From assembly GCA_050084515.1 (NCBI GenBank), contig CM114271.1:11966001-12030000 (forward strand): a stretch of 64,000 nt of DNA. Direction: 5' to 3'. A program made the translations under genes and the position numbers. Source of the DNA: Blasia pusilla (lineage: Eukaryota). The notes under the pieces are model-generated. The model made no database searches and had not been told where the DNA came from. It was given only the letters and a program-made list of their open reading frames with translations. Positions 14,126 through 62,138 of this stretch are shown piece by piece; position 1 is the first letter of the stretch, and every line of letters begins with the position of its first letter.

Positions 14126-14440
14126 TAGGTAGTGATTGATTCTAACGTGTGTTTGTGACATGGATGACAAGAAGGCGACTAACGATGGGGCTACATGAGC
14201 ACCCGGCCTTTTTGCTCTTAGCGTCTTAGAGATGTATGTCATGGTAGGTAGGGATAGATGACTATTTGGAGTTAGAGGGATCTAACCATCAGCTCGGGGG
14301 GCGATTGGAGCTATTTTGTTGCTTATTATCTTCATTTTTGGATGCCATGAGTTAGCATGGGATTGTGCCTGTTTGTGTGTATGTTCGGTGACAGAAATGT
14401 ATGTTGTGTAGCAATGTGTATGCGCAAGACAGTTATGTTG

Positions 14441-14890
14441 TGTCAGGTCTGTTAGGATAGATCAATAAGATCTAGTAGAGCACCGTCGGAGATATTAGAG
14501 GAAAGCCTTGTAAGGTCGAGGATGACCTGTTGAGGGCACGGATAACTTGAAGTTTCCCCTTTATTTCGGCTCATTTGGACCCATATTAATAAACTTACTA
14601 TTTTTGGTAAGTTGCCAAATTTTTTGTATAGTTGATGTTCCACTCTGGGAAGTGGCCCTTGACCCCCTATAGCAAGTCAAGAGCCAAGGAGGTAACTTAC
14701 GAGCATAGGTTACTGTGGAGAGGGCTTGGGAGAGGGAGAGGGAAGGGGATATATCTCCAACAGGAAGAGCTTGAAAGCTCCTTCTCTCTTTGTTGAACCT
14801 CTTGGCATGAGGCGACGTAGCTATGGTCCTCCTTGCCTTGCGTGTGTAATCCAATCCAAGCCTCTCATTAAAAGAGTGGGTTTGGTTTGA

Positions 14891-14957
<67 letters not shown>

Positions 14958-15109
14958 ACATTTGTGAGACCTTGTTATGAATGAGAACCTCCTGATTTAT
15001 TGGAGATATTTTGGTACTTATTGTCTTGATGATTGGATGCCATGAGTTAGCATGGGATTGTGCGTGTCTGTGTGTATGTTTGGTGACAGCGATATATATG
15101 CGCACGATA
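14441..15109 (+). repeat. LTR-like family unit (A-B) containing (GA)n
   Basis: Starts tgtc...taggatagatc...gatctagtagag and ends tgcgcacgata. Homologous to 49942-50566 and 52967-53450. (GA)n at ~14894-14956. Confidence 0.65.
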
Positions 15110-15519: not shown

Positions 15520-21029
<5,510 letters not shown>

Positions 21030-24321: not shown

Positions 24322-24825
24322 ACAGCGATTCAACTTCGAAATCCCGACTGTAATGCAATAAAGATTCACACAGCTCAAAGAAGTCTAGCGGCCACTCATT
24401 GAATCGTGTAGATAGACGGGCAAAAACCGGGATTACTTATCACTAGGCCACCCCACCATCCTACAGGTGCTGCGAAGGAGCGAAGAGATTTAATCACATG
24501 TAGAGAAAGGTAAGGACTCCAGTACCAGAAGAGAAACAACAGACCTTCACCGCCAACGAGAACTCTTCGCGCTGTTGTAGATTGCGACGCAAGTACAAGG
24601 GATCCCACAGCAAGTAGCGAAGAAAGAGACCTTCATGGGCAGTGAGCTTTGAAGTAATCACTCTGATCCACTTGGAGATAACAATGATCGAAGAAACCTG
24701 ACTACACACAATCGGTACGCACTTCCAAACAAAGACGAAAATCAAGAGTGGGAAAGAAGTGACATACGAAGCTTCACTTGGACGGGGTCGGCAGGTGGTC
24801 CAAAAGATCAAAGGATGCGAGAACA

Positions 24826-33720: not shown

Positions 33721-36700
33721 TGTCGCGACCCTCATAACCAAACAACACCAAATAGGCGCCAAGCGAAACATCAGAACTCAAAGGAACTCACGCTGCGAGG
33801 TTTGCGCTTTGGAGAGGCGTTTGGATAAGTCCCTTGGAAACGTCTAAGGGACGAAACGCGGAACAGAGTTGTGCGTTTCATGCGTTAGTGTTCGCGACCA
33901 GGAAACCTAGACCAAATGCGAGCCAAGACTTGAGATTAGTTGAGTCTTGGGAGGTTGGTTGCCAAAGAGGTGAGAACCAGCTTGGAACACGACTAGCGTT
34001 TGGGAGAATCTGACTGTGTTTAGGACCATAGCGTTGAGCTCCAAGATGCGTTTGGGACAAGTAAGGGTGCGTTGGAAAGCTGATCTTGAGACGCTTTGGA
34101 CGCACAAAGATCTCAGCAAACGCATAAGTACAGGCTGAGATATTGGCCAAAAATGATTGAAAGAGCAATCGGATTGAGGGCCAATTGGAGAGGCCCGGGT
34201 GTCCTTCCCTAAATGTAGGGGGCCCTCGGAGATCCCTAGAAGTACTAGTAAGGGAGGGCCCTCTCCAAGATGTCTCGGGAAACGAATCCCCACTTTGGGC
34301 GCCAAACGCCGTTTCAAAGGCACGGGATGGAACGGGAGTTTGGCGTTGGAACTCGAAACCCAAACCTGATCCAAGGGAGTGGACTTTGTACGCCACACTT
34401 GGATTCCAACCCGAGATTCACTTCGTGCGAGTCTTGGTGAGGAACTCATTGGATGTCCATTAGACAGTTGGAACCGCTAGGCGTGAAATGCCGTTTCAGG
34501 TTCCTGAACCGACCAGAAAGTCTATCCCAAGTCTTCCGAGATTTGCCCGTGTTGGAAACCGCAAAACTAGGAAGGTTGAGCTTGATGAGAGTCCGAGACG
34601 AGAACTCGGAAAGTAATCCCATTGATTGATCCAAGACCCGACTAACCGAAGTGCATGTTTGGATGCAGATCAGCATTGAGAGCGTGACCTACTGAACGCA
34701 CGCTTCCGCAACAAACAAGATTAACGTTCAAGGAGAGTAGGCGCACGACACGTGATATCAGAGCTTATCCTTGATGAGCGTGAACTTGGGGTCGTTGAAG
34801 ATCTGGACGTTTGGGGAGAAATCAAGGTAGCCGAAAGACCGCGACGTTGAGGAGGAATGCAAGAGGCGAGGAGGAGATCTGAGAAAGCAAAGACTCGCAA
34901 ATGGCGACCAAAAGCGAAGAACCAAGGAAACCGCGAGTCAAAGCAAAAAACCCGAGAGACGAATCAATGACGAACCGAGAGCCAGAGGTGGAATTTGCGA
35001 CTCTCGAAGTGCCGAGTCCCAGACATGAGGATGTTCCAACTGAAAATCTTTTCGCGGGACCTTTGGGTCCGAACTTAAACGATCCGGCCTTTTATATCCT
35101 AATGATGGGATTGATGGAGGTGATGGCGTACCAGATGGCCGAACAGAGCAAGGTGATATCGGAATTCAAGTCAAATGGAGCCTCTAGTTCTGGCAAGAAG
35201 CTTTGTAAGACTAATTTGCCAACGCCATTCACAGGAATGGGGCGTTCTCGGAAAGTGAGCGAGTTTCTAACGGAACTCGAAATTTATTTCGAAGCGCAAA
35301 AGGCAGACGAACAAGACAAAGTGACTGTAGCGGTCACGTTTCTGAAGGATCCCGCTCTCCATTGGTGGACGGCTCACGGTAAAGAACATCTAGGTTGTGG
35401 GAAAACGTTGAGTTGGGAATATTTCAAGGAGTTGATTGGGAACCGATTCACTCCAGAATATCAGGAGTATTGCGATGGCATGGAGGTGGTGAGGTTGCTC
35501 CAGAGTGGATCCCTTGGCGCTTATGTGCAAGAGTTTAGTGCACTCATGAGTGTACTTTCCACGGATGAACATACAAAAAAGGTGATCTTCCTAAGTGGAC
35601 TCAAATCGAGTACCAAAAAGGCCCTCTTTTCTATGCCTCACATCCCAGAGACGTGCGCGGATCTTTTGAGACTAGCAGAGCGGATTGGGGACGATGAAGT
35701 CCAACACCCGAAACCCTTTGAGCCAAAAAGTTTTTCTAAGTTACTGAAAAACAAAGGGACATCCAAGAGGGTTTGGAATGGGGGTGAGCGCGACCACGTA
35801 GGGTCTCTTGCCCCAGCAGCAAAACGAGTGGAACTCAATGCGAAGCCAAAAGGGCCGCCGTTTACGAAGTCAACGAATGCCAAAGTGATTTGCTACAACT
35901 GTGGCAAACCCGGACATATGGCTAAGGAATGTGTTAGGCCCAAGGTTAGTAAACCAAGTATGATTGCGTTTTCCGCTAAGCATTTATCGGAGGGAGATCT
36001 AGATACATCTTTACAAGTCACCAAGAGAACGCCCAATTTGGTTTACCTAGGATCCATGATCGCTAATCGTGATGTGATGTTGCTCCTTGATACAGGTGCT
36101 TCACACTCATTCTTGAGTTCGAGAATCGTGAAAATGTTGGGATTACCAACCACCAAGGCGGATGAACCCATTAGGGTAGGATTCGCGGGAGGCAAGTCCC
36201 ACCAGACTTCAGATCTGGTTTTAGGGCTAGTTGTGAGATGCGGAGTATTTGAGTTGAAGGAGAATTTCACAGTTTGCGACATGGACGATATCAACGGAGT
36301 CTCGGGGAACACATTCTTGGATGCGTATGAGGTGGAACTGAGGCGAAGACCTTTGAGGTTGAGCATCTTGGTTAACGGCAAACGAACGGATGTCAGATTG
36401 GTTCGCGAGGTGCCTAGGAAGACGGAGTTGGTGAACGCCATCACGAGGACGAGTTTGGCCGAGTTAGAGGAAGGATTCCTTTGCTTGATGAGACAAGTAG
36501 AGGATGATGCAAGCGTGAGATCCAGAGATCAGAACTCAGCTTCAAGGGGAATCCCTAAAACACTCAAAAGAGTTGTGAAAGAATTTGGAGATGTGTTGAC
36601 TAAGGAGCTTCCGACTGAGTTGCCACCACATAGGGCGGTTGATCATAAGATTGAGGTGATACCAGGATCTCAACCACCTTCAAAAGCACCATATAGTTTG

Positions 36701-39700
36701 AATCAAGAGGAACTTGCTGAGTTGAAGAAACAGTTGGATGAACTCCTAGAGAGGGGTTACATCCGAACAAGCAAGTCACCTTATGGGGCACCCGTCCTCT
36801 TTGTAAAGAAGAAGGATGGGAAGTTGAGACTCTGTGTTGATTATCGGGCGCTGAATAAAGTGACGGTAAGGAACAACTATCCTCTACCAAGGATGGATGA
36901 CCTCTTTGATCGATTTTCGGGTGCCAAGTATTTCAGCCGAATTGACCTGAAATCAGGATATTATCAGATTCGGATTGCCGAAGCGGATGTAGAGGAGATT
37001 GCGTGTAGAACGAGATACGGTTCGTTCGAGTTTGTGGTGATGCCTTTTGGTCTTTGTAATGCGCCTCCAACGTTTACCACTTTGATGAACTCCATCTTTC
37101 ATAAGGAGACGGATGAGTTTGTGATCATCTATATAGATGACATACTCATCTATTCGAAAACACTAGAGGAGCACGCTCGACATTTGAAGACAGTGTTTGA
37201 GAAACTTAGGGCGAACAAGTTGTATGCGAATGCGGATAAGAGTGAGTTCGGTTTGACAAAGATCAAGTTCTTGGGGCATGTGGTTAGTGCGGATGGAGTG
37301 AGTCTAGACATGGAGAAGGTAAGCGCGATTGTCGAATGGAACCGCCTTCCACGGTGAAGGGGATGAGAAGGTTCATTGGAGCAGTCCAGTTTTACCGGAC
37401 ATACGTGAAGAACTTTTCAGGAATAGTGAAACCTCTCACGGATTGGACCGCAAAGTTTTCCAATACTACATGGACCGAGGAAGTGGATAAAGCGTTCAAT
37501 CGAGTCAAAGAGATCCTCTCGAGGAACGATTCAAAGCGCCGGAGTTTGACCAACCGTTCGAAGTGCACACGGATGCTAGTGATTTTGCGAATGTTGGTGC
37601 AAAAAGGGAGACCTGTAGCATACGAGAGCAAGAAGCTTAGCGACACCAAAAGGAGATGGCCTACTCATGAGAAAGAGTTGTTTGCGGTGGTTCACTGCTT
37701 GAGGAAGTGGCGTCACTATCTGGGACTTCACAGGACTCGAGTATTCACCGATAACATATCGCTCAAGTATTTTGAGACCCAGGATCGCGTACCGCCAAAG
37801 CAACTTCGGTGGCATGATACCTTGGCGTTGATGAATGTGGAGCTAATCCACAAGCCGGGGAAAGACAATGTCATTCCAGATGCGTTAAGTCGCAGGGATG
37901 AGCACATGCCATCGACGACACAAGTGTTGAGAGCAATGTTCCCTAATGAAACAAACCTGGAAAGAAGGATTCGTGAAGGATACGCAAGCGAGGGAGTACC
38001 TTGGGAAGTTAAAGCGGGGCGAGAAGGTGGCCAATCTGAGTTTGAGACACGGCTTGCTGAGGTTTAAGCAGAGCAGGATCTATGTAGGCCAAGGCAAGCT
38101 ACAGACCAAGGTGTTTGTGGAATGTCATGATGGACCTTTGGCGGGACACAAAGGGGAGAAATCCACTCTTGCTGTTTTGACCAAAAGGTTCTTCTGGCCC
38201 AACATGAAGGAAGATGTTGCTCAATATGTGAAAACATGCGTGACCTGTCAAGCGAACCGCGTTTCTTATGCGAAGAAACAATGCTTACTTCATCCTTTTC
38301 CAATCCCGAAGGGACCCTTGCAAAGCATTAGCATGGATTTCATTACGAGTCTTCCGGAATCTGAGGGATACAACGCTATACTTGTGATAGTTGATCGGTT
38401 TAGCAAGTTGGGGAGGTTTGTGCCGACGAGAGAGTCTGCAACGGCCTACACGACTTCCCGACTATTCCTGGATGGTTGGTGGCGAGCGCACGGATTGCCT
38501 AGGAGCATTGTGTCCGATCGAGATCCAAATTTTACCAATGCCTTTTGGAAACATCTATTCATGAGGTTCCGGATCAAACTCAGCTTTAGTATGGCCTTCC
38601 ATCCTCAAACGGATGGGCAAACAAAAAATTAAACTCGGTCGTAAACCAATACTTACGGAATTACGTGAGTGCAGACCAAAGAGATTGGGCCAAGTGGTTA
38701 AGTATGGCTGAGTATTGTTACAACTCGACTAAGCATTCTGCAACCGGAGAATCTCCGTTTCTTCTGGCGTATCAAAGAGAACCAAAAGGGCCTCTTGACT
38801 TAGCTCTTTTGAAGGGCGCTACATCGACACACACTCGTCAAGCAACGGCGGAATGTTTGTTAGTGGAAATGCAGGAACGACAAGAGCGAGCGAGGAAAAG
38901 TCTCGCCAAGGCTCAACTAAGGTACGTGAAGCATGCTAACAAAAGTCGGCGCCAAGTGAGTTTCCAAGTTGGGAAACAAGTGTGGTTGAGTGTAAAGAAT
39001 CTCACTCTTCCGAAGGAATTGTCCGCGAAATTTTCAGCCAAGTATGTTGGACCGTATGTGATCAAGGCAAAGCGGTTTGAGGATGTGTACACATTGGAGC
39101 TGCCAAACGAGTTCAAGATTCACCCGACTTTCCAGGTGTCATTATTGAAGAAGTGTCTTCAAGACAATGTGCGTCCGGAGCGAAGGAGGATGTTGAGACC
39201 ACAACCGGTCATCAGAAATGAGAAACCAGAGTTCGAGGTTGAGACCATTGTGCGTTCCAGACGTAGAGCCACCAAGTACGAGTACTTGGTCAAGTGGAAA
39301 GGCAACCATGTGAAAGAGGCGACTTGGATTGCGGAGGCGGATCTTGAACACGAGCAAGAAGCATTGCGTGACTTCAGATGGATGCAAGAAAGGCACGTGC
39401 GTTAGTACATTGTGAAGCAATGGACATAACTTGTGACCGGAAAGCTTGGGCCGATAACCCGTTGTAACTAGAAATGTTTTGTTGTTGCAATAAAGAAGAC
39501 ATGGATTTGGAGATTCGATGCTTGTATTGTAATTTTGAGTTTGGTTTGTGCAAGGCAATGAGTAGTTCTTCATATGCTTAGGGTGTAAGTTAAGGAGACC
39601 AAACAATGAGTATTTGAGGTGAGAGCTTGTATTCATATAAGGCATCTAGATCAGGACCAAATGTTGAAGTACTAGCATTTGGGCTTGCCCTAACGTCGGC

Positions 39701-41128
39701 GGGGCAGATGAGTCTGTCTTGGGGTTTGTGATGATCTCATTCATGTTGCATGACTGAACTTAGTGATGCGCCTAGGTGGAGTACAAGTGACCCAAAAGTA
39801 GTACGAGTTGGCTAGGTAGACAGGCGGTTGTTTACAAATAGTGAGTGAAGTGTTAGGTTGCAAACTTAGTGAGCTTATTTTGATAGTTAGATTAGTTCAA
39901 CAGAACTAGTCTAGGCTCATCAAAAAGAAGAAGCTAATAAGTCTAAGTGCTGCAAGTGACAACCTAAGACTTAAGCCAAAAGAGGAATTGCGGGTTAGCT
40001 ACCAGAACGCGATTCAGTGTTAAGGGGTCGGCTTCCCAGAACTTAACATTAATAAGGTTTGCGTTGATGAGGACATCAACCTTCTAAGGAGGGGTGAGTG
40101 TCGCGACCCTCGTAACCAAACAACACCAAATAGGCGCCAAGCGAAACATCAAAACTCAAAGGAACTCACGCTGCGAGGTTTGCGCTTTGGAGAGGCGTTT
40201 GGATAAGTCCCTTGGAAACGTCTAAGGGACGAAACGCGGAACAGAGTTGTGCGTTTCATGCGTTATTGTTCGCGACCAGGAAACCTAGACCAAATGCAAG
40301 CCAAGACTTGAGATTAGTTGAGTCTTGGGAGGTTGGTTGCCAAAGAGGTGAGAACCAGTTTGGAACACGACTAGCGTTTGGGAGAATCTGACTGTGTTTA
40401 GGACCATAGCGTTGAGCTCCAAGATGCGTTTGGGACAAGTAAGGGTGCGTTGGAAAGCTGATCTTGAGACGCTTTGGACGCACAAAGATCTCAACAAATG
40501 CATAAGTACACGCTGAGATATTGGCCAAAAACGATTGAAAGAGCAATCGGATTGAGGGCCAATTGGAGAGGCCCGGGTGTCCTTCCCTAAATGTAGGGGG
40601 CCCTCGGAGATCCCTAGAAGTACTAGTAAGGGAGGGCCCTCTCCAAGATGTCTCGGGAAACGAATCCCCACTTTGGGCGCCAAACGGCGTTTCAAAGGCA
40701 TGGGATGGAACGGGAGTTTGGCGTTGGAACTCGAAACCCACACCTGATCCAAGGGAGTGGACTTTGTACGCCACACTTGGATTCCAACCCAAGATTCACT
40801 TCGTGCGAGTCTTGGTGAGGAACTCATTGGATGTCCATCGGACAGTTGGAACCGCTAGGCGCGAAACGCCGTTTCAGGTTCTTGAACCGACCAGAAAGTC
40901 TGTCCCAAGTCTTTCGAGATTTTCCCGTATTGGAAACCGTGAAACTAGGAAGGTTGAGCTTGATGAGAGTCCGAGATGAGAACTCGGAAAGTAATCCCGC
41001 TGATTGATCCAAGACCCGACTAACCGAAGTGCGTGTTTGGATGCAGATCAGCGTTGAGAGCGTGACCTACTGAACGCACGCTTCCGCAACAAACAAGATT
41101 AACGTTCAAGGAGAGTAGGCGCACGACA
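33721..41128 (+). mobile_element. Complete Ty3/Gypsy chromovirus LTR retrotransposon
   Basis: LTRs 33721-34750 and 40099-41128 (1030 bp each, TG...CA). TSD TCTTT on both sides. PBS tgatatcagagc (tRNA-iMet-like) at 34753. PPT aaggaggggtgag at 40086-40098. Confidence 0.96.
34901..39405 (+). pseudogene. Gypsy gag-pol (Gag, Zn knuckle, PR, RT, RNase H, IN, chromodomain) with frameshifts
   Basis: [30 protein letters not shown] and DDE integrase; chromodomain EFEVETIV...YLVKWKG...ATW. Frame breaks near 37340, 37520, 37985 and 38630. Confidence 0.95.
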
Positions 41129-42209
41129 TCTTTGGTCTAATGTAAGGGTCATGAAGTTGAAAACAAACATGAGAGTTCAAATGTTGGATGGTCATTTGCG
41201 TGATGAACAACAAGCTTTTGCTGATTGGCTATTGGAAGTGGGAGAGGGTCATGTACTTTTACACCCTCATTTGGGAGAAGACTTTATACGATTACCATCT
41301 GAAATTGTTACTAAAAGTAACAAAATATGTGATCTTATTGATTTGAGCTATGGAAATTTTCTTAGCCGATTCCATGACATTTATTTCTTAGGAGATACAA
41401 TTATTTTGACTCTGAGAAATAAAGATCTTTACGATGTAAATGCAGACGTTATATCTCGGTTCCCCGGAGAGGTAATCCTTTAGACTTATCTCATTTGTAC
41501 TTCTATCAATATACTTTTCCGGAAGTTTGGATACTAATATTTCCATTTCTCACTAATTCATTACATATTGGGTACAAGAGCATATTTACCTTAGCGTCGA
41601 CTCTATTCCAAATGAGGGAATGAGTCATATCTACCCAACTGAATTCTTGAACACACGCTTGCCTTCTGGACTTCCTCTGCATCGTTTGTGTTTGAAGATT
41701 GGTGCACCAATCATGCTCTTACGAAACATGAATGGGTCACATGGACAAGCAAACGGGACAAGATTGGTGATTCGTGGATTTATGAGACATTGCATCGATG
41801 TTGAAATTATCACTGTGAAAAATATTGGATATCGCATTTTTATTCCACGTATTCCATTGATTGCATCAGATTCTAGTTTGCCATTTGATTTGCGTAGGTT
41901 TCAATTTCCTGTTAGACCGGCTTTTGCTATGACTATTAATAAGTTGCAAGGCCAAACTTTGCAAAAGGCTGGCATTTACTTGCCTACTCTTGTATTTTCT
42001 CATGGTCAATTGTATGTAGCATTATCTAGAGTAGGAAAGAGAAGTTCCATCCACATTACCATTGGAAGAGATGAACATTCAAATAAAAAAGATGACTACA
42101 CACGAAATGTAGTATATAAACAAATATTGAGATGAAATAAATTTGATAAAATGTATCTTCACTCTATACTACCTTATTTCACCCGTGCATCGCACGCGCA
42201 CCTTACTAG

Positions 42210-44813: not shown

Positions 44814-45251
44814 TGTCACATCTCTTATGATAGATCAACGAGTTTTGGTAGAGCACCTTCAAGGAGATTGGAGAAAAGCCTCAAAATATCAAGGATAACC
44901 TCTTGAGGCCTCAGGCAAATTCAGAGAGCAGGTTTCCCCTTCATTTTTGATCATTTGGCATTATATAGAGAAACTTGCTATTTCATGTAACTTTCTATCA
45001 CAAGTATAATTGGCTTTCCACTTTGGAAAGTAGCCTTTGATCCCCTACATTAGGTCAAGAGCCAAGGAGGTCATCTACGACCATAGTTAGCATAGAGGGA
45101 AGAGGATATACCCAAAGAGAGGGAGCTCCGAAGCTCATTCTCTCTTTGTTGAACCTCTTGGCATAAGGCGGGGGAGCTTTGGTCCTTTTTGTCTTATGCA
45201 TAACCCAATCATCTCATTAGGAGAGGGGGTTTGGTTTGACATGAGAGAGAG
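44814..45251 (+). repeat. Truncated copy of the LTR-like family (A part)
   Basis: tgtcacatctcttatgatagatc...gtcaagagccaaggagg...ttctctctttgttgaacctcttggcat...ggtttgaca. Confidence 0.6.
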
Positions 45252-46969: not shown

Positions 46970-47852
46970 CTCCTGCAAGTGTCTCAAGATCCTCATCATC
47001 TCCCAAAAAAACCTGCACCGAGTGTCAGCTAATCTGCTACCTCGTCCAACACTCGATTGGCCCTGACATGGCCAACCAGTAGTGACCAAATCTATGGCCC
47101 CTACCCGCTCTAAGTCCTGCGCCCTGAGCAATGAAATGTCCCTTGGTAGGAAACTCTAGAATCCATGTACGACGGACGCAGACAACAAGTCGAGAAATCG
47201 AAGGTGTTAAGTGTGCTACATGGTGAAGTGATGTGCGCCTCGCAACATCATCAATCTCAACATACAAGTAGTGTTGCACACTCACTCATGCTTGCAAAAC
47301 AACAGCTAATCCAATGTTGATCCCTCCAAAGAGATCCAAGACATGAATACCCTCCTCTGGGATGCGCCACACAATTGGTGTGGTGTCCAAGGGGGTCATA
47401 GTAGAACTCACGGCTACCTCGGGTTCCTCTAACCCGTCACGCTCTGGTGCAAACGCCCCACTCCATACCATTTGCATGTGCTTATATGCCAAGCGTCGGA
47501 GCTCCTTACTCGAGCCCCACAACGGCACCTCTCCTCCACGGAATGATGCGGCTATCATAACAAACCTCTTCCTAGAAGTATCAGGCGCGGGGATGTCCTC
47601 GGCATGGACATGCCCCTCAATCAAATCACTAAGCCATGTGATGGCGTTGCAGAATGTTGCTAATTGTCGCCATCTTTCATGGCCGTTGCTCGATCCCTCC
47701 ACCCTTGAATCGAACGGGAAATGAGCTAAGTCGCCCATCACCTGACTGCCATCATGGTCTGTAGGACACTGACTCGTCCCAATAATCCAGAGAAAATCCC
47801 ATCGGGTATAATATTGCTCCATCAACCAAGACGTCGAAAGACTTGGCATCAA
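46970..47852 (-). pseudogene. Retroelement pol fragment: protease C-terminus followed by C5 DNA methyltransferase motifs I-V
   Basis: Manual translation: FDVLVDGAILYPMGFSLDYW (retropepsin-like end, ~47780-47840); VLDLFGGI (motif I); YVEID (motif II); IDLVTTGWPCQG (motif IV, 47060-47095); RLADTRCRFF. Frameshifted. Confidence 0.8.
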
Positions 47853-49061
47853 TTAACTTTTCAAATTTTTTCAAATTTATTAATATTTATTTTTATCTAT
47901 TAGAATATTAAATAAATTATTAATTGATCAGTATTTTTTTTTTCTATTCCACTCAGATCCCTATCCATTTCTACCCCATGTAATATGGCTCAAACAACAC
48001 AATTCAAACATGTCATATTATCATTATTTTATCATATTATGTCGGTATCTTGTCGTATTATGGATACGGCCCATACGGGGTCGCCAATAGTTATATACAT
48101 TTAGAAAATATGAATTTTTTTTCCAAAATTTGATTTCATAATTTTCAAATTATTTTTAATATTTTAATGATTAAATCATTCCACTTCTTCTACTTTTAAC
48201 TTTAATATATGCCCATTGGGGAAATTTTCAAAATATAATTTTTGGATATTCATTATTTTATAAAATAATGAATAAAAAAATCCTTATATTAAGTATAAGT
48301 TCAAGATGTTCGAATATATGTAAAAAAAATTAAATATAATAAATATAATAATTAAATTTATATCAAAAAAACCTTTCAATTATTGTACCTTGCACGTTAT
48401 CCATTTCATGAACTCACTTCATGGAAAACATTCATGATTGGCTCACATTCACAAATCTCCTAAGTGAAATATTCTGAAATATTATGAAAATTTACTTACA
48501 ACAAATGAGTAGTTTCCCAACAAATATTTGGATTGAGAGGAACCTACTACTTATGTACATTAAAAAAATAAAAATATAAACTTATTCTATCTAATCTAAT
48601 TCCAAATATATGTAACACTGGTGCGGACGTCTCACAAACTCTTCCTCCTCTTCCCCTAGCTCTAGTCACGCGTGTCCCACCTCCACAAGGAATAGTCCTC
48701 TCCAACTCAACATCGGCTTCACCATCATCTTTTTCTTGTGTTGGCTCTGTCGGAAACATCTCACACTCTCTCTCCAAGAATCCAAAAAGTTCCTCCTGCA
48801 TTCGACGAGGGTAATGGTATGTTTGAGGATATCCCACTTCTGTCCTTTGATGAATATCTTGCCATAAGAAAGGTGGCAAGATCAATTGAGTCTCCTCAAA
48901 ATAAGGTCATCCACTAATGGATTTTGATGATGGTTTAGCACAAGTTGTCGAGTTGTGTTGAGGGCGTCTCGGACTTCATGTGGATTCAACCCCCGAGTGA
49001 AGAAGAATTTTTATACCTCTCAATTTTGGACATCTATGGCTTTTCTGTGGATGAGTTCCCC

Positions 49062-50700
49062 TCAATCGTACATGTTAATGAAGCAGACCAGCCACGCTAG
49101 CATTACCCGATCAATCCTCTGTTGACGAAGGATTTTTGCGTGAACCACCCTATCTATGTTCACTTTGGGGTTATAGTTCGATCGGGGGCTACGATGTTCC
49201 AAACTGAAAGTGAAATTGTCTTGCTCTTGGGTTCGCTTGTGATATGTAGGTGGTGCATTGCTATCAAGAGCACAGAAAGATATGCCAAAAAGGTGATAGA
49301 GTCTTCCTGACCAAACTTGTCTACAAGTTGGACACTTGTGAGATTGTAGCATGGCCTTTTGAAGACAATATGGATGCCAATAATAAGCTTTACATGTGTC
49401 TTTCACGCAGCAACCTTCTACAATAATGGGGTTGAAGCAAATCATGCATTAGGGCCAGTTGTTTGGCGTTAGGGCCCCTCCTTCACTTACTACGATTTCC
49501 TTCATCCAATCCGGAAGATCTTGCACTTGTGTGCTCAAATTTAGAGGTGTTCGGGCCAACATCATAGAGGCACAGTTGGTTGGCAGCGTTTGGATCTATG
49601 AGATTGTCCCATGCTACGCGTAGAGTTGGAGGCCACAACTGCTCCATAGGTTGAAATAAGATCATATCAACCTCCTTCACAAGACGAACCTCAAGTAGAG
49701 TTGTCTCGGAAGTGAGTTCTTCCACGTTACCCTTTGCTCTCCATCGCAACAATTCATCCATCTCTTATTTTTGTCTTGCCATGATGTTTTTATATGCTCT
49801 CCTCCACTGCTCTATGTGGTCAACCATTACAACTCTTAGCCTTCTATCGAGGTCATCTTTGGTAATAGATTCGTTCAAAAGCCTCTCCATCTCTCTCTTC
49901 AATCCGTTGTACTCCTCAGATAATTGTTCATACTTCCCCTTTGTCATATCTTTTAGGATAGATTAGTGAGATCTAGTAGAGTGCCTTTGTGAGTAGTGGA
50001 GGACATGCTCAGTAGGTTGAGGATGACCTGCTCAGGCCCCGGGAAACCTGAGAGAGCAGGTTTCCCCTTCGTTTCGGCTCATTTGGAGCCATATTTAGGA
50101 ACTTACTATTTTAGGTAAGTACCATTTTGAGTATATGATCGACTTTTTTTTTTTAAGTGGCCCTTGACCTCCTACATGAGGTCAAGAGCCAAGGAGGTGA
50201 CCATGGAGCATAGGTTACTATGGAGAGAGCTTGGGAGAGGGGAGGGGTATACCTCAAGAAGAGAGAGCTTGAGAGCTCATTCTCTCTTTGTTGAACCTCT
50301 TGGCATGAGGCGGCGGAGGTATGGTCTTGCTTGCCTTGTGTCCGTAATCCAAGCCTCTCATTAGGAGAGTGGGTTTGGTTTGACATTGAGAGATACATAT
50401 GAGAGTGCACACATGTGAGAACTATAGTGTTGTGAGAGAGATTTGATCTTATTTTATTGGAGATATTTTGGTACTTCTTGTCTCGTTGTTTAGATGCTAT
50501 GAGTTAGCATGGGATCATGCGTGTTTGTGTGTGTGTTCGATGACAGCGATGTGTATGCGCACGACACCTTCAAAACGTTGAATTCCGCGGCCAAATCAAA
50601 ATTGCATTGGGAATGTGTTTTTAAACTCTCCAACTGTGATAGACGAGGCATTACCTCTTGACACCAATGTTGGACTCGTCTTGGTTCTCTCCCGCTCTCG
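49062..50700 (-). pseudogene. Coiled-coil + RING-finger coding remnant interrupted by a solo LTR
   Basis: CMIC...C...HPYC...CPTC at 49310-49450. Heptad-like segment continues in frame across the insertion (AEFNVLK-GKYEQL). In-frame stops present. Confidence 0.5.
49942..50566 (+). mobile_element. Solo LTR (625 bp) with 4-bp TSD CCTT
   Basis: TGTC...GCGCACGACA flanked by cctt on both sides. Removing it restores the reading frame of the interrupted ORF. Confidence 0.8.
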
Positions 50701-52099
50701 ATGGCCCAGCCCCACTAGACATTTCCCTCAGATGAAGAAGATAAAAAAGTATTTTAAAAGAACAAGTGAAATAAATATACGGGTTAAGATAAGAAAATAC
50801 CGAAAAGATAATGACGCGAGATGCTATAAACATGGCTCAGAATGTATGGGCACATGAATGATGGAACGACCGTCTCGCTTTAGGGTTGGGCACTCAAATG
50901 GAATATATAGATATGGGCATTTCTAGATATGTTTCGTTGACGACTTCCACATCCCCAATGTGCTAAGGAGAACCAATGAAACAAATCTAAAAATTTGAGT
51001 CTATGAATCGAAAATTTCAAAATCACCAAACAAGTTCAGTAATACGAGAGATACTTGTGTTAGAGTATCGAGTAATACTCATCTAATATGGAATCAATCG
51101 GAGTTTCTTTAGGATGCAACAAGGAGCGAAAATATCCAAGTTGGTCCAAAATAAAATCCAAGTACCCCCAAAAGGCACCCAAGGGATTTTCCCAAAATTC
51201 CTAGTAACCTTGGAAGCCCTTAGTTTTCAAGGCACTGATGAAATTTGGAGCCTGATCCAAAATGTCACCCAAAAAAGGATAAAACATGAGAAAAATAGGG
51301 ATAAGTGGATTAATTAACCCCATATCCCCTTGTTTTATTCATTTTGGGGGCCAATTGCTTGCCCTTGCCTTATGGGTTTTACCCAAAAGGGGGAGGGGAG
51401 GGGAAGGGAGGATAGGGCAAAGTTTGAACTTGGCCCCTGCCAATCAAAGCCCGCCATGTGTCCCCGCGGGGTTCGCAGGAGGCGGGCTCCACGTCAGCTC
51501 TTCCGATTGGCGAGATGACAACAAGCTAGAGCGGGAGCAATGGTGGCTACGGTGGGGGCAAAAGTGAGCACGCTATGGAGCGGTGCCATGTGGCGCCATC
51601 CAATTGGCGGAGATCACGGCGGGCTCACGGGCGGACTCGCAGCCCGCCTACATTGATGCGGGCTTGCGGGGGGACTAGCGGCGGGTTGGCTCGCACTTGG
51701 AGGGGTAGGCTCCTGGGCCCACATACGGGCTATGATGTGGGCCCAACTTATTCGCGACGTGGGCTTGACAAAAAAATAGGTGTCGGGCGTGATGCGCACT
51801 GGCCGATTGAGCAAGGATGGAATGCTCGGGATGCGCGGGGCCAGATGAGGGCTGCGGGCACACCTCAAGGGCACATGGGCCTATAGAGCTCGCATCCAGG
51901 CCCGCACGGACATGTCCATCCTGGAGATGGATATACGTCCGCGGACACAGATTTTGTCCGCGTGGAACCTTGTTAGGACCTCTTGTTGCCGTGGTTGGCG
52001 AAGAAATACAGATTCAACACGCATGCCTGGTTAGCGTCTTTCTCACTGTTTTTGTTGCTTTATGGTCGAGAACCGGATTTACATGTGGTCATTTGTCGA

Positions 52100-52657
52100 G
52101 ATGCTGGTGAGGTGTTGGACCTTGATGATCTTAATACATGGATGCGAGCATATTCTTAGAGGCCTAAGTTGATTTGGAGAGTGATGCCCATGGCGTTTGA
52201 GAACTTGATGATTGCACATCATCGGGATACCTTGAGGTATGCGACTATTCAGGGAGGTGGTTTTCGACCTACTATCCGGAGGTTTCATCAGGGAGACTAT
52301 GTCTACTTGCAGCAAACAGCATACACGACGTTGGATGTGACTACAAGGCGCACTATCTTGAGAGTGCGTGAGGTTTTGCCATCAAGTTTTCTCTTATTGG
52401 AGGGACACGGTGGTATGGTTTGGAAGGACCATGTGCATAACTCTACGCCATGCCACCTTCCTAACATTGACGATACAGTTGATCTGATCTTAACATTAGT
52501 TCCTACAGGCTTGCAATGTATGTTGTGTGGTTTCGCCTATGGTGCAACTACTATGCTAGTTTGTGATGGATGTTCGAGAGGATGGCATATGGTATGTCTG
52601 ACATCACCTCTCATGAAGGTTCCCTGGGGACAATGGATGTGCCCCAAATGTACATAG
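52100..52657 (+). pseudogene. Gypsy-type integrase C-terminal region fused to a PHD finger
   Basis: MPMAFENLMIAHHRDTLRYA...FHQGDYVYL (integrase tail), then CMLC...MLVCDGCSRGWHMVCLTSPLMKVPWGQWMCPKC (C4HC3 PHD). Confidence 0.8.
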
Positions 52658-52966
52658 AGTAGATAGTGATAGATTTCAACTTGCATTTGTGACATGGATG
52701 ACAAGAAGTCGACTTACAATGGGGCCACATGAGCACCCGGCCTTTTTGCTCTTAGCGTCTTAGAGATGTATGTCATGGTAGGTAAGGATAGATGGCTATA
52801 TGGAGTTAGAAGGAGCTAATCACTAGCTAGGGGCTGATTGAAGATATTTTGATGCTTCTCGTCTCGATGTTTGGATGCCACGAGTTAGCATGGGATTGTG
52901 CGTATTTTTATGTATGTTTGGTGACAAGGATGTATGTTGTGTACTGATGTGTATACGCACGACAAT

Positions 52967-53285
52967 TGTTACATGTGTTTGGATAGATCTACGAGATCTA
53001 GTAGAGCGTATTTGGAGATACAAGAGGATAGCCTTAGGAGGTCAAGGATGACCTGTTGAGGCCATGGGTAATCTGAGAGAGTAGGTTTCCCCTTTGTTTC
53101 ACCTTATTTGGAGCCATACATATAAACTTACTATTTTGGGTAAGTTTCCATTTAGAATATAATTGTCTTTATACTTTGGGAAGTAGCCCTAGATCCACTA
53201 CAGCAGGTCAAGAGCCAAGGAGCCAAGAGGTGCAAGAATTGGCTACTGTGGAGAGAGCTTGGGAGAAGGAAGGGGATATACCTCC

Positions 53286-53358
<73 letters not shown>

Positions 53359-53450
53359 TGTTGATGGAGAGATCCACTTGATCGTTCTTGTTTGTGTGTT
53401 TGTTCAGTGATAGTGATGTATGTTGTATAGCGATGTGTGTACACATGACA
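52967..53450 (+). repeat. LTR-like family unit with (GA)n, downstream of the PHD region
   Basis: Homologous to 49942-50566. (GA)n at ~53290-53355. Confidence 0.65.
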
Positions 53451-54344: not shown

Positions 54345-55971
54345 TCGCAAAACATCTATGGGATAGTCGGAAGATTGGTGTGTCGCTAGACAACTCAATG
54401 CAGATTCTGGACCCTTCCGCATACCCAAATTTTGCATGCTAAATTCAAAATAGCTCCTATAACTCCTAAGGAACAAATGTATCTGGCACCGCTCTCCTCC
54501 TATCAACTTAGGGCTCATACTTGGCTCCCAAGTCTCCATTATCACTACGGTAGGACTCTCAAGTATGGGTATCGGTGGTTGCTATGGTGCGACCCTATCT
54601 CAGACAACAAGACTCGACTGCTCCCTAGAGCCAATTGCAAACTCTCATCTCCTCCAGATGTAGTATCGGGCACCACGCTCGATGTTGTGACGATCATCTC
54701 TTGGCGTACTTTCAAAACATCCCAAGAAGTCCAAGGGTGTCTCTCCCGATCATCCCTCATATTTCAATCTCCCCGGGTCTTGCCCCTAGCCATTGCCTCA
54801 ACCGTCTCGGTAGGCATGGGCTCACCAATACAACAGCTGTAACTTGTCGTAACCTTATCTGACCTTGCTCAGCAACTCTTAAGTGATGATCCATATCAAA
54901 TAGTTCAAGTTCATCGCCTGAACCAGAATATGACGTCGTGATGCCTCTGATAATGACGGTACTATCGTCACTCCTCTAGGAAATCCCATCGCCCGCTCTT
55001 GCTCATTAGCATTGGGCTCCACCAACCGTTCTACTTGATCATCCCAAACCAAGTTGGGTCCGGCCTCCTTGTGTGCATAGGAAGCAAGGAAACTCACAAA
55101 AGTAAGAAAGATTGCATATGGCATACCAATCTTGTTGACTATAGTCAATAGCGGTTGATCATCGTGTCTCACTGCCTGTGATCAATGACCCGAATCCATG
55201 ATAACATCTATCAACAAATGGGAGGGGTGCTCCACTCTCGCATAAGCCCTCTACAACATCTCGAAGTAGGACCAAGTTGTTCCACTATAAACACGGGTGA
55301 TGAGCTCCTACACTCGTTGCATCCAAGAACACTGTTGGGCAGATCCAGACATACACCTAATGTGCACTCGTCACTACACGTGACCTCGGATCGCCCAAAA
55401 TTGGTACATTCTCCAAGATGTAAGTTGGAGAACGAGACTATTGCGCATGCAAATATCGCAAGATCCTCATTATAGCCCAAAACAACCTGGATCAAAGGTC
55501 AGCTAATCCGCTACCTCGTCTATCACTCCACTGGCCCTAACATGGCCTACTAGCAATGACCAAATCAATGGTCCTAATCCGCTCTAAGTCTTGCACCCCC
55601 ACCTAAAATGTCCCTCGGTAGGAATATCTAGTACCCCTGTACGGCGGACACAGACAAGAAGTTGAGAAAATAGAGGTGTAACAGTGCCATTTGTTGCTTG
55701 ATTTGTTGAAGTAAAATGCACCTCGCAATCTCATCAATGTCAACAAATACTATTGCACGTGCACTCTCGCCTACAAAGCAACAGTCAAAATGCAACCTAG
55801 TGCTAATCTCTCCAAAGAGATCCAACATTCGAATCATCCTCAAGGATGCGCCACACAATGGGTGTGGTGTCCAAAGGTGTCAAAATAGCACTCCCGGGTA
55901 TCTCGGGTTCCTCCGACTCGTCACACTCTGGTGCAAACGTCTCACTCTACGCTGTCTATATGTGTTTATCG
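54345..55971 (-). pseudogene. Retroelement pol fragment: full C5 DNA methyltransferase domain followed by the start of RT
   Basis: MLDLFGEI (I); FVDID (II); IDLVIASRPC*G (IV); YILENV (VI, 55405-55422); DATSVGAHHPCL*WNNL (VIII); EQERAMGFP...RRHILVQAM (IX/X). Then ICIELSSDTPIFRLSHR, typical of the Gypsy RT N-terminus. Confidence 0.85.
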
Positions 55972-57220
55972 TGTAGAAAACTGCTAAAAAAGCATAATTG
56001 GTGGGATACAACTCTCACACTCATATACCACCATGGAGAATAAAATTTTGCACTAAGAGAATGAGTGGTGGCTAGTTCTCTTATCAATTATATAAGATAT
56101 GTACAAGAAATCCTAACCCCAATCATAACCATAGTCTTGAGTTAGACTAACTATGGTTAACTAACCTTAGTTAAAATAATCGCGCTTAGTTGACTAGTCA
56201 AGATTAAGCTCCCCTACTTCGTGTGTGTATCAAATATAGGGAAGCTTAATCTTGACTAGTCATCTAATCACTAGCAGTTTGAGCGTTCGATGAGCTTGAC
56301 TATAACTTAGTCTTCAATACTCCCCTTAAGCTCATATCAATATTTCTAACACCTAAATTGTTTCTTAATATCTCAAACTTTTCTCTAGACAATACCTTTG
56401 TAACGATATCAACAAGTAATTGTTGCGGCCACACCATCTCACGCTGCATTGGTTGCTCCTCAGTACTCACCCTCTGTCGAAGATAAAACAATTGTAGGTT
56501 GCTTCTTTGAAGCCTAACTTATAGATGCGCTTCGTAAGTAAATGAATGAATAACCATATGTGTAGTGTCTATCAAACATGCTTCCTGCACAATCAACATC
56601 TGTGAATCCCTCTAATGGAAACTCGGAGAAGATTCAAATTGAAGCCCGAATTAAACAGAGAAGTTCACATACTGCAACATCCTTCTCACATCATCAAGGT
56701 AAGGTTTTCAAGATGCTTGCATAAATTGGCTCACTAGGCCAATTGTGTAGCTCAAATTTGGTCTAGTTATAGTCAAATAGATCAAACTTCCAACCATGCG
56801 CCTATACATATCAGAATTTGCAAGCAACTCTCCTTCATCCACTCTTAGCTTTACACTCTGGTCCAACGGTGTAGAGATTGGCTTACAAGCCATCATACCA
56901 TATTTTTAAAGTATGTGAAGAGCTGGTTAAGTCATAAATACCTCCTCATATATATAGATCTTCACTCAAGAAGGCATTCTTGACATCCATGTGATGAAAT
57001 TTCCACTTTTTACTTATTACAACTGCAACCAGTATTCTCATAGTCATAATCTTTGCAATAGGGCTAAATATCTCCTCATAATCGATGCCATATTGTTGGG
57101 CATAACCCTTGGCTGCCAATCTGGCTTTGTATCTGTTCACTATACCATCTTGATTGCGCTTGACTTTGTAAACCTATTTACAACCAATAGCTTCCTTACC
57201 GGAAATAATATCAAACAGCT
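55972..57220 (-). mobile_element. Ty1/Copia 3' fragment (RT remnants, PPT, 3' LTR 55972-56319)
   Basis: RYKARLAAKGYAQQYGIDYEEIFSP; HMDVKNAFL; YRRMVGSLIYLTITRP; DIVTKVL; PPT aaggggag; LTR ends ...ttttctaca. Confidence 0.88.
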
Positions 57221-59115: not shown

Positions 59116-59867
59116 TAATGAATTTAGTCTCTGAAAAGAGGACCTTTTATTTCCCCGTTCTAAACTGTCTTGGTACCCCCTCTCTGCATGCCTTGTTTTT
59201 CACTGGTCGACGGGAAAATCCCACCGCTGCGCACGGCCGGGGCAGCGACGGGAGCGAGTCATTCGGGCGAGCATCGCGTTGCGGAGCAGGAAAGGGGAAC
59301 GGGAGATGAGATGGAAATGGAGGCGGGGAAAGGAAGTAGGAGGAGGACGGCGATGAGGAATTGAGAAAGGGGAATTCGGAGCGAAGTGAGAAGGAAGGCG
59401 AGATCTGGGTGGAGCAGAACATCGTTCGCAGTGGCGCAGTAGATCTGTTCGATGATGTGATGGTCTATGTTTCCATGGGATATGGATGAGGAGGTGGATG
59501 CGCATTAGCAGTAACGCGTTAACTGTGATTGAGATTCTCTCCGGATCGATCGGCGGAGGTTTTCCGCAGAGTTGGCGCAGTAATATATAGTAGAGGAGGA
59601 AGATAGATAGAGAGAGAGAGAGAGGTGCTGGTCAGACTGCGTGTCAACAAATTGGAACGAGGTGGAAGTGGAGAGATAGAAATTAGGACCGGGTGATCAG
59701 TATCGTGTAAGAAAAGGAAAGAGATCTATGGATATAATTGACTGAACGAAGCAGTTGGAAGTAATTGAACGAAAGCAATTGTTCTCAGGGCAGAAGCCGT
59801 CCGGTGAGACAGGCATACAAACAGAAACACAGACTGACAGAGAAGAGGGAAGAAACAGGAATTGAGG

Positions 59868-62138
59868 ATGGTGAAGTTTGGAAGGTATGCGGCAGTGAGT
59901 GCCGTAGGTGCTTCAGCAGTGATATTCCATGCCTTCAAGAGTAGAGAACAATTCTACCCGGCCATGCTGTATCTGGCTACGTCAAAAATTAGCCTGGTGC
60001 TCTTGTTGAATATGGCTCTTGTGGTAATTTGTGCGATCTGGCAATTGATCAAGGGCATTTTCTTGGGGCCTTTAAGAGAGGTTGAAGTGGAACGCTTGAA
60101 TGAGCAGTTGTGGAGAGAAGTCATGGAGATTTTGTTTGCGATGACTGTTTTCCGGGATGAGTTCAATGTATCGTTCGTCACGACTATCATCGTCCTTCTC
60201 TTTATCAAGGCCTTTCACTGGCTAGCACAGACTAGGGTGGAGTATATTGAGACAACGCCCTCCGTTTCGCGGCTCTCTCATGTACGCATCATCAGCTTCA
60301 TGGCGCTTCTGCTCATTCTGGACTGCGTTCTATTCAATCACTCGTTCTCTAATCTCCTCAAGACCAGACAACCATCAGTCTCCCTTTTTTTTGCGTTCGA
60401 GTAAGAATTGACTCACGTTCACGATTCGAATCCTTCGTTGCCAATTGTCTACTCCTGTACATTGGTCTGTGCACTTGCTGAACGTGTCCCTGAATTAGGG
60501 TTGATGAACTTGATTTTAATGGGCTGGTTCATTTCAAGGCTTTCACATTTTCACGTCTTGTAGTTCTCGACAGCTCTAGCTTGGGGCTTCTTATCTCGAC
60601 CAGCATGCTACGTTTGTGCAAAGTTGAATTTTGCGTAAGATTACATTTCATCTATTCGAGATGCTGATTCAAGTCACGTCCTCCAGATTTAACTTCTGAA
60701 ACTGAGAAAAAATATAGATCTGTATATTTTCTCTGGACTCAATTCTCTCAGACATGAACAGATGTCATTTCTAATACTGTGCAGGTATGTCATACTGGCG
60801 ACTTCCACTATGGCAACATTTGTGAAATATTCTCTATATTTGGGCGACCTATTCATGGAAGGGCAATGGGATAACAAGGCTGTTTATGTTTTCTATCTCG
60901 AGCTTGTGCGAGACCTTCTTCATCTTTCTCTTTATCTTTTCTTCTTCCTCGTCATTTTCATGTAAGAATCATCAGCAAGTACACACCCCAGTTTGGACTA
61001 TTTTTTAATACAATGTTCCTTGATTTCCACTTTTTTCTTTTTAACTTGTTTATGGTTATAAAATCATTCCAAGCCTTGTGGTAGCTGAAACCCGTGAATG
61101 GGGTTGTGTCCTTTGCAGAAATTACGGCTTACCACTCCATTTGGTGCGGGAGCTTTATGAGACATTCCGGAATTTTAAAACACGAGTTGCTGATTTCATT
61201 CGATACAGGAACATAACATCAAATATGAATGACCGTTTTCCTGATGCTACTCCTGAAGAGCTCGGGAGGTAATTCCTAAGATTTCATATGGCAACCAAAA
61301 TGTTGAAACGATGCATTTTTAGGATACCTGTATGTCAATGCACAACTGTGGTTTGATGTGAATTTTTATTTCACAACTTATTTCTTGAATAAGGACTTTT
61401 CTGTTTCTGGACCAATACTTAAACTGCAAGCTCAAAACTTCCTGTGTTGTATGTGGAAGGTCAGTACTCAGAATACAGTATTACAATCTAGTGGGAGATG
61501 ATATTCGTATTTTTTGTAGTTTATGGTGCGGTCCTGAAGTTACTGTGGGCAAAGTTGATGGAATTGGAAATTGGAGATGCAGGAGTGATGCAACTTGTAT
61601 AATTTGTCGGGAAGAGATGTCTACAGCAAAGAAGCTTCCCTGTGGCCATCTCTTTCACATACATTGTTTACGCTCATGGCTAGAGCGCCAGCAGACATGT
61701 CCAACTTGCCGATCATCAGTGCTGGCCTCAGAAGTTACAAGCACTGCTGGAGATCCTGCAGCTCCCCATCCACCCCTACAAGTAGAAGAACATGCCCTTC
61801 AAGGTTTACCCGTTCATCTTTTTCATCCTATCTAACAACAGTTGGATTTTTTAAGCCCTGCATTTGGATTGAAGGTTTGCAAAATCACTTTGATTTGTGC
61901 CAGATCTCAGCAGTGTGATCTTATAATAAAAAGGGGTTTTCTTTGACATTTTACTGGTGGCAGGACAAGGTCATGTTGGTCAGACAGTTGTGACTCAGCT
62001 AAATCGACAAATTCCAGGCCATGGCCCGGGTGGTCCTAGTGTACAGCAGGAAAGACTTTACAATGCAGCGACATCAGCTGCTTCTCAATATCAATCTTCC
62101 TTTGTGTATCCAACAATGAGGACTGACATCACCAATTG
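59868..62138 (+). CDS. HRD1: ERAD E3 ubiquitin ligase HRD1, exons 1-5 (59868-60400, 60785-60961, 61119-61268, 61583-61803, 61964-62138); continues beyond the window
   Basis: QFYPAMLYL, FLGPLREVEVERLNE, LPLHLVRELY, MNDRFPDATPEEL, RING-H2 CIICREEM...LPCGHLFHIHCLRSWLERQQTCPTCR. GT-AG introns keep phase. Confidence 0.93.

Follow-up and report, generated by a model that had tools for sequence, protein, structure and literature searches.

A stretch of 64,000 nucleotides from Blasia pusilla (GenBank assembly GCA_050084515.1, contig CM114271.1, forward-strand positions 11,966,001 to 12,030,000; hereafter the window) carries decayed copies of a retrotransposon family in which single elements hold both a chromatin-reader-type PHD finger and a DNMT-type domain, a pairing of predicted activities that a preliminary description of this DNA had put forward. 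The element is ~ 10 kb long and of Ty3/Gypsy type, and runs A1, gag, protease, DNMT3, TAG, reverse transcriptase (RT), RNase H, integrase, PHD, B1, A2 and B2, where A and B are repeats; about this identity and anatomy we have very little doubt. One 3' piece at 51977–52654 (+) is, as had been reported, the C-terminal part of a Ty3/Gypsy integrase (core end, helical linker and small beta domain) running into a PHD finger; it is 5'-truncated and has a premature stop at 52157–52159. A 165-amino-acid open reading frame (ORF) within it, at 52160–52654 (+), gives a Pfam PHD match over residues 120–164 (E 2e-8). This complete C4HC3 finger (52517–52651, +) is the final domain of ORF2 and is followed directly by the stop codon, an arrangement seen in 19 of 20 copies, and its eight zinc ligands are all kept here and, ligand by ligand, in 28–29 of 29 further copies. 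Over 226 amino acids the frame 51977–52654 is 74% identical to residues 561–786 of a natural uninterrupted 786-residue frame in the copy L095, which encodes RNase H, both the zinc domain and the core of the integrase, and the PHD, and whose modelled integrase region matches the integrases of foamy virus, Rous sarcoma virus (RSV) and Ty3. The window piece is without the catalytic core, and it is called an integrase on the strength of its homology to the L095 frame.

Genome-wide evidence places the PHD pieces in one family with the DNMT pieces, as had been suspected. We read the 8 kb upstream of the 20 best PHD loci besides the window; the DNMT N-terminal region lay there on the same strand at 17, and at 15 the DNMT motif IV region as well, which disposes of the idea that PHD-bearing elements never hold the DNMT. 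The distance is mostly ~ 4.3 kb, with RT, RNase H and integrase in between; of the exceptions, two (L037, L046) are truncated and the third, L050, has no DNMT match. From the other side, a PHD lies 3–5.5 kb downstream at 14 of the 20 best DNMT loci. The same arrangement recurs in 27 of the 31 metagenome relatives having at least 4.5 kb of upstream sequence, and databases hold single proteins combining DNMT, integrase and PHD. Within the window the DNMT and PHD pieces are non-contiguous and on opposite strands, as had been stated, and are separate insertions: two DNMT pieces and two PHD pieces make four decayed insertions of one family. The DNMT remnants lie at 46970–47856 (−; protease end, linker and DNMT3 motifs I–IV) and at 54355–55976 (−; a whole decayed DNMT3 domain, the ORF1/ORF2 boundary and the start of RT). 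The second 3' remnant, at 13808–15107 (+), contains an integrase tail, a PHD at 13968–14123, B1 at 14305–14431, A2 from 14441 and B2 from 15000. The preliminary description had seen the arrangement recur here, and the piece is a real copy (79.5% DNA identity to the first over 971 nt), but its PHD is broken, being frameshifted with one zinc ligand lost.

The family is abundant. Querying the genome with the PHD gave 12,999 first-look candidates and with the DNMT side 13,049, totals that are not copy numbers, and all 150 of the PHD candidates that were scored, besides the query itself, matched at 74–79%; this rules out a fragment of a host PHD gene. From forty evenly spaced 5-kb samples of contigs C1–C9, 14 of them with matches, we estimate that the family covers ~ 16% of the 390-Mb genome (bootstrap 8–26%), and copies are distributed across all large contigs. 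Exact 26-nt and 19-nt patterns found 1,286 5' junctions and 607 internal junctions, both lower bounds, with none in controls. More divergent PHD-bearing subfamilies (L050:9019-9510 oriented, 58% to the window ORF; L250) nest beside the main family, and L137 and L156 are miniature copies made of A, a few internal bases and B, possibly non-autonomous derivatives.

The full explanation that we favour joins this anatomy to a leaky stop, cDNA methylation, a junction template and a PHD tether, and taken whole we think it somewhat more probable than not. Most ribosomes would halt after the DNMT, giving methyltransferase at capsid level, and a minority would read through into RT and integrase-PHD, as the conserved stop context suggests. 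The DNMT would then methylate new complementary DNA (cDNA) inside the particle. The internal B1/A2 junction would serve as the template that restores both linear cDNA ends, plus two extra bases to be trimmed by the integrase, and the DDE integrase would insert the cDNA with the 4-bp duplication that is observed. Lastly, the PHD would tether the integration complex to the free histone H3 N-terminus, disfavouring H3K4me3 at active promoters, much as a chromodomain does in chromoviruses.

Overlapping natural frames of several copies span gag (with zinc knuckles), a linker, protease and DNMT with no common break; the natural uninterrupted protease-DNMT frame is 626 amino acids long, and the Ty3/Gypsy order of protease, RT, RNase H and DDE integrase was confirmed in the family. 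The DNMT has a Pfam DNA_methylase match and DNMT3A/B/C as its best solved structures, with unpermuted motif order and no introns. Motifs I, IV, VI, VIII, IX and X are retained, and the catalytic Cys is kept in 60 of 65 aligned relatives and in 41 of ~ 53 decayed loci of the family's own. Against 14 metagenome relatives the ratio of nonsynonymous to synonymous substitution (dN/dS) was 0.16 for the PHD, 0.12 for the DNMT, 0.12 for RT and 0.06 for the integrase core; among decayed own copies it was 0.39–0.45 (DNMT 0.39 among 18 copies). By this codon measure both PHD and DNMT are under purifying selection. In three stranded RNA-seq runs from a single study, 5,868, 6,249 and 6,239 reads among 10–12 million fell on L095, over its whole length. 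More than nine-tenths of these run in one direction, which is the sense direction if the library chemistry is the usual one, and depth rises toward the 3' end and drops near the A2 end. Most reads are 90–95% alike to L095, and they may represent many copies or host-gene readthrough.

That the DNMT acts on the element's own cDNA is, in our estimate, an even chance. Several points count against the full explanation: synonymous divergence (dS) from the metagenome relatives is 1.5–2.2, close to saturation, and a filter had removed poorly aligned codons; the RNA runs, which share a species label with DNA runs that contain the family, may be from another organism than this genome; and the DNMT of a related element in the alga Klebsormidium nitens showed no activity in yeast, a result its authors termed inconclusive (PMC5890265). 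Alternatively, the enzyme could work in trans on host or inserted DNA, as self-limiting silencing or as a by-product shaping the host methylome. Production at gag level and transcription of the family would suit this, and host benefit is among the options of de Mendoza et al. (PMC5890265). However, from what is generally known of retroelements, a DNMT that is fused to gag and protease ought to stay within particles, and a self-silencing element is unlikely to reach 16% of a genome. We regard action in trans as rather improbable, although it is the alternative that survives best.

For the PHD, the best solved matches are CHD4, PHD1 of KDM5B and KDM5A, ATXR5, DPF3 and PHF21A, whose fingers are readers of unmethylated H3K4, a kind to which KDM5 PHD1, BHC80 and AIRE belong, and no ING or BPTF finger appeared among the 60 best solved matches shown. 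The full C4HC3 ligand pattern is found in 211 of 240 relatives. Of those 211, 197 have an Asp after the third Cys and 193 a Gly two before the His, never a Trp, at what we take to be the position of the cage Trp in the PHD alignment. By the criterion of 10.1101/715474 the aromatic cage for H3K4me3 is absent, and with the residue roles described in the same source for KDM5A PHD1 (A1 pocket, R2, and K4 and R8 contacts), the equivalents of P331, G333 and W335 (A1 pocket) and of D312 (the R2-binding Asp) are kept in 13–14 of the 14 nearest relatives. Beside the finger, a near-invariant His/Cys/Cys/His cluster closes the integrase beta domain in all aligned relatives (window ~ 52420–52460; also L095 and L097); it may be an extra zinc site extending the finger.

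Other observations speak against a finger that reads K4 or steers insertion. The KDM5A acids contacting H3K4 and R8 (D292, E305), and also D315, are absent in the near branch; the acid before the first Cys (D292 equivalent) occurs in 2 of the 14 nearest relatives vs 128 of 197 distant ones, and the E305-equivalent acid in none of the 14, though it is common in distant ones. A close relative from Closterium, P0263, has no annotated PHD, and the finger is thus dispensable in some branch. The flanks of 43 insertions are not enriched for the family (13% vs 16% genome-wide), and their lower CpG ratio (median 0.47 vs 0.59, p = 0.005), which lends weak support to PHD-guided target choice, could be due to spreading after insertion or to selection. 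A predicted complex of the L097 PHD with residues 1–30 of an H3 encoded by this genome scored 0.30 against a mark of 0.34, with no alignment used, and is counted neither way. With the cage absent, the A1/R2 pocket kept and the K4 acids missing, tethering to the H3 tail is likely and K4 selectivity uncertain. To judge from these residues, the finger is probably an H3 tether for integration, and true K4 selectivity falls somewhat short of an even chance. PHD-guided target choice, as first proposed, is a putative role of the finger.

The PHD might instead choose no sites and be a general chromatin or protein anchor, serving nuclear retention, intasome assembly or the holding of the complex on a new insertion during methylation. 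The missing K4-contacting acids of the near branch, the lack of excess nesting into the family's own copies and the spread across all large contigs are what such an anchor would show. It fits less well with A1/R2 pocket residues conserved clade-wide, and with a PHD that sits exactly where the window's chromovirus has its chromodomain (a weak alignment, E 0.017). In addition, the PHD-bearing Gypsy-7a of Chlamydomonas inserts intergenically at 2.6× expectation (PMC9940879). An anchor without site choice seems to us slightly less probable still than a DNMT acting in trans.

The stop codon after the DNMT lies in frame with RT, separating two domains that share one frame, and is followed by CAA CCA. 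The stop site has 523 exact matches in the genome, and of the 100 listed, 97 are TAG, 2 TAA and 1 TGG (counted by eye). In the metagenome relative L254 a run of 2,276 codons holds just two stops, one at the DNMT/RT boundary and one after the PHD. Its post-stop codons are CAG TTA, and those of L203 are CAA TCA, both relatives having 48–49% DNMT identity. CAR YYA after UAG is the readthrough signal of tobacco mosaic virus (TMV), established in plants (PMC2754532, PMC5397192). Database proteins split at the same point, into gag-protease-DNMT proteins of 1,150–1,440 amino acids (annotated ones of Marchantia as well as unnamed ones, mostly without RT) and RT-integrase-PHD proteins of ~ 1,000–1,170. 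As the stop and its following context are conserved, we infer readthrough at the TAG and, on codon context, hold it likely; the DNMT would then be made at capsid level. P0291, a close DNMT relative, is filed at NCBI as a protein of a cyanobacterial-lineage metagenome-assembled genome (MAG), and is probably plant DNA in a metagenome bin.

Readthrough has its difficulties. Most other relatives have CAA CCC after the stop, which agrees with CAR YYA at 5 of 6 positions, a Met stands 14 codons past the stop, and a stop lying in frame between gag and pol does not by itself imply readthrough, as Tca2 uses another route (PMC2194720). It is conceivable that ORF2 (RT, RNase H, integrase and PHD) is made separately, by reinitiation or from a shorter RNA, in which case DNMT and integrase-PHD would never be one polyprotein. 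The nearby Met and the Tca2 precedent suit this, and many relatives are catalogued as RT-integrase-PHD proteins of 1,000–1,170 amino acids. RNA depth is also higher over ORF2 than ORF1, which 3' bias explains equally. However, ORF2 is in frame with ORF1 in intact copies, variation of the six post-stop bases stays inside CAR YYA or adjacent to it, and the RNA data list no strong internal start; a separately made ORF2 is accordingly unlikely, and readthrough remains our preference.

At its 5' end the element opens with repeat A (~ 515 bp, TG...), and it closes with B-A-B (B ~ 127 bp, ...CA). In the window copy, a 3' untranslated stretch with a purine-rich conserved block at its end (52658–52837, +) adjoins B1 (52838–52964, +), the ~ 127-bp right-end sequence with CA at its end. 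There follow the 2-nt spacer of the internal right-end/left-end junction (52965–52966, +), A2, the left-end sequence starting TG, 75% to A of another copy and truncated at a GA microsatellite (52967–53306, +), and the distal part of B2, which is the right end of the insertion (53380–53450, +). The LTR-like sequence of the preliminary description thus consists of element end repeats, but not of an ordinary long terminal repeat (LTR). Elsewhere in the window are a solo A-B unit with a perfect 4-bp target duplication (49942–50567, +), older isolated A repeats at 44814–45251 (+, 73%) and 20593–21029 (−, 69%), and an isolated B repeat at 15520–15646 (−, 78%).

This plan is regular across the family. 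The 5' end carries A only in all 12 copies having the A1 end displayed; of 30 junction loci almost all read PHD, untranslated stretch, B-A-B, with two head-to-tail dimers; and 4 of 20 PHD loci terminate at B1. The A...B-A-B plan is also present in the relatives L212, L214 and L259. The B1/A2 junction is CA + 2 nt + TG, that is right end, two bases and left end, within a short palindrome, and ~ 86 of the 100 spacers listed are a purine then a pyrimidine (by eye). Within single copies A1 and A2 are 91–99% alike (10 copies with both). In 12 copies, 37 of 48 positions of a 4-bp target duplication match vs 28% in mismatched pairs, with 3, 5 and 6 bp at background; the right ends of L034 and L044 were mis-set, and without them 33 of 40 positions match. 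The relative L214 also has a perfect 4-bp duplication. A point against this picture is that the duplication is perfect in just 4 of the 10 copies with complete ends, despite such similar A1 and A2. We also observed that the 2-nt spacer is far more variable than the adjacent CpG-bearing bases, mostly staying purine-pyrimidine, and that target duplications show more mismatches than A1/A2 divergence predicts; either could be a replication feature or assembly error.

The purine-rich block before B1 (window ~ 52812–52837) occurs in 16 of 20 copies of the family itself and in 33 of 60 metagenome relatives, and is conserved between families (L207–L260) with diverged A and B repeats. Its purine run might act as the primer for plus-strand synthesis, and the 5' half of the block may be complementary to a tRNA D-arm. 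There are no tRNA genes within the 64-kb window, and inspection by eye revealed no tRNA-type primer site after A1. Sense ORFs gave no Pfam match to a tyrosine recombinase; antisense frames reach at most 241 amino acids in 7 of 8 stretches, the eighth being a neighbouring LINE-like RT. Since split repeats occur with 4-bp duplications, the ends are arranged as in PAT and Ngaro elements but insertion is of DDE type. Membership in DIRS/PAT, which the split direct repeats would fit, is ruled out with a DDE integrase present and no tyrosine recombinase found.

In IS3-family elements, a circle is opened by the transposition enzyme at the junction of the ends. Replication here might similarly pass through a circle opened by the integrase at the palindromic right-end/left-end junction, in place of linear cDNA. 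The CA + 2 nt + TG palindrome, in 607 exact copies with a control of 0, speaks for such a route, B1-ending copies and head-to-tail dimers exist, and models for DIRS and PAT involve a circle junction (PMC7192593). Two equal junctions should, however, yield permuted A-B-A-internal-B copies, and this form was seen at none of 30 5' ends and none of 30 junction loci; we consider the circle as improbable as a separate ORF2, and favour the junction as a template for linear cDNA ends. That the PHD and DNMT pieces stem from different families, together by chance or nesting, as their opposite strands and separation in the window could suggest, has practically no standing beside the same-strand co-occurrence and the single proteins holding all three domains.

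Among named sequences, those closest to the family are proteins of liverworts and peat mosses; its relatives are known from Marchantia, Calypogeia, Sphagnum, Klebsormidium and chlorophytes. Named carriers of the integrase tail-PHD come from Marchantia, Calypogeia, Klebsormidium, Volvox, Tetrabaena and Haematococcus, and 327 representatives reach E 1e-30 or better. A scan of 20 long relatives gave DNA_methylase matches in 9, of which 8 lie between RNase H and integrase and 1 ahead of RT, so the DNMT has moved position within the clade. A quick integrase tree places the family with Calypogeia and Sphagnum (95), within a group (81) to which a single K. nitens protein also belongs; two further K. 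nitens proteins lie outside that group, and the window's chromovirus is far away. The family is a bryophyte relative of KnitGypsy-Dnmt3 of K. nitens, in which Gypsy domains and Dnmt3 stand together with DIRS-like repeats (de Mendoza et al. 2018, PMC5890265). Shared features are the Gypsy domain set, an intronless and unpermuted Dnmt3 domain, purifying selection and the A-coding-B-A-B repeats, and the K. nitens proteins P0017 and P0027 share the integrase tail and PHD. No K. nitens DNMT protein was among the matches of our DNMT protein searches, and a direct kinship of the DNMTs is putative. They differ in that the text of PMC5890265 mentions the PHD 0 times (its figure 4c could show one), apparently in that the paper puts its DNMT in the Pol ORF whereas in Blasia the DNMT, though in the same frame as RT, ends the gag-protease ORF ahead of the conserved stop, and in that the alga has few copies and the land plant ~ 16% of its genome.

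Other known systems share parts of the design. REM1 of Chlamydomonas reinhardtii is reportedly a PHD-bearing Gypsy element, like Gypsy-7a_cRei. The latter, active in the same alga, has an intergenic bias and a PHD in Gag-Pol that was proposed to steer insertions (Craig et al., PMC9940879), and that text names neither DNMT nor split repeats. Chlorophyte relatives share the integrase tail-PHD with the Blasia family at 40–49%, and those of chlorophyte type have the DNMT between RNase H and integrase rather than before RT. PAT-like and Ngaro elements have split direct repeats (A1...B1-A2-B2), and PAT carries a methylase (PMC7192593); they differ by their tyrosine recombinase, the Blasia family having a DDE integrase, 4-bp duplications and a cytosine-specific DNMT3 methylase. 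EpiLTRs of Cymbomonas and Euglena, with chromodomain, DAM and a DNMT4-related domain, likewise join reader and DNA-methylation writer within one LTR element, and are termed distinct from streptophyte Gypsy-DNMT3 (bioRxiv 10.64898/2026.05.21.726589). PHD and chromodomains are widespread in retrotransposons (PMC6673714), PHD-transposon fusions are listed in 10.1101/2021.11.30.470311, and, according to a 2019 review, land plants "such as tracheophytes" lack methylases of this sort (PMC6338049). A reader and writer in a Gypsy element is therefore a kind already known in parts. Our literature search, with subscription papers, Repbase and theses mostly outside its coverage and with supplementary material that may show the PHD or further species, found no published account of the family in bryophytes, of the PHD and DNMT3 pairing or of the leaky stop. 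Apparently new are the presence and scale in bryophytes, a likely readthrough stop placing DNMT3 in the gag ORF, and the junction anatomy.

The window also offers a chromovirus for comparison, a Ty3 element at 33721–41128 (gag, protease, RT, RNase H, integrase, SH3 and chromodomain; LTRs 97% alike) that lies within a Helitron (29298–42135) and splits its PIF1 helicase. Like its coding part (34883–39405), our family has a histone-reading domain at the integrase C-terminus behind a small beta domain, and the position first noted for the PHD, that of the chromovirus chromodomain, stands. Chromovirus membership does not: the family has a PHD instead of a chromodomain, split repeats instead of full LTRs and a very distant integrase, and the chromovirus has no DNMT; profile comparison of the chromovirus tail with the family gave a probability of 2.7%. 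In the DDE triad of the L095 integrase core, the Glu lies 34 residues (counted) from the second Asp, one fewer than in this chromovirus. Host genes among the repeats are a single-ORF Kri1 (657 amino acids, 22411–24384, −) and exons of a synoviolin/HRD1-like RING ligase (59838–61835, +). Also present are a MULE-like region with a partial tandem duplication (944–7945, 81–82%), another MULE-like piece (11583–11903, −), a LINE RT (18660–19262, +) and a RING fragment (49062–49448, −).

Retrotransposon-borne DNMT3 was earlier known from an alga with few copies; here it belongs to the bulk repeat of a land-plant genome. Marchantia polymorpha, a tractable model for which epigenome data exist, has annotated but unrecognised members, and the role of the element's own methyltransferase, possible steering by the PHD and the feeding of a DDE integrase by split repeats can therefore be tested on natural copies. 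As a caution, transposon ORFs are among what bryophyte annotations count as DNMT3 and PHD genes. A wider reading, which we offer as speculative and rather unlikely as a whole, is of a hybrid lineage old in green plants and dominant here, with end copying of DIRS/PAT kind, DDE insertion, DNMT3 at capsid level, pre-methylated cDNA and docking on H3K4-unmethylated nucleosomes, and a possible source of host methylation. Host DNMT3 enzymes obtain their reader-writer coupling from the ADD domain; if this reading is true, the hybrid lineage would rebuild that coupling from two captured parts.
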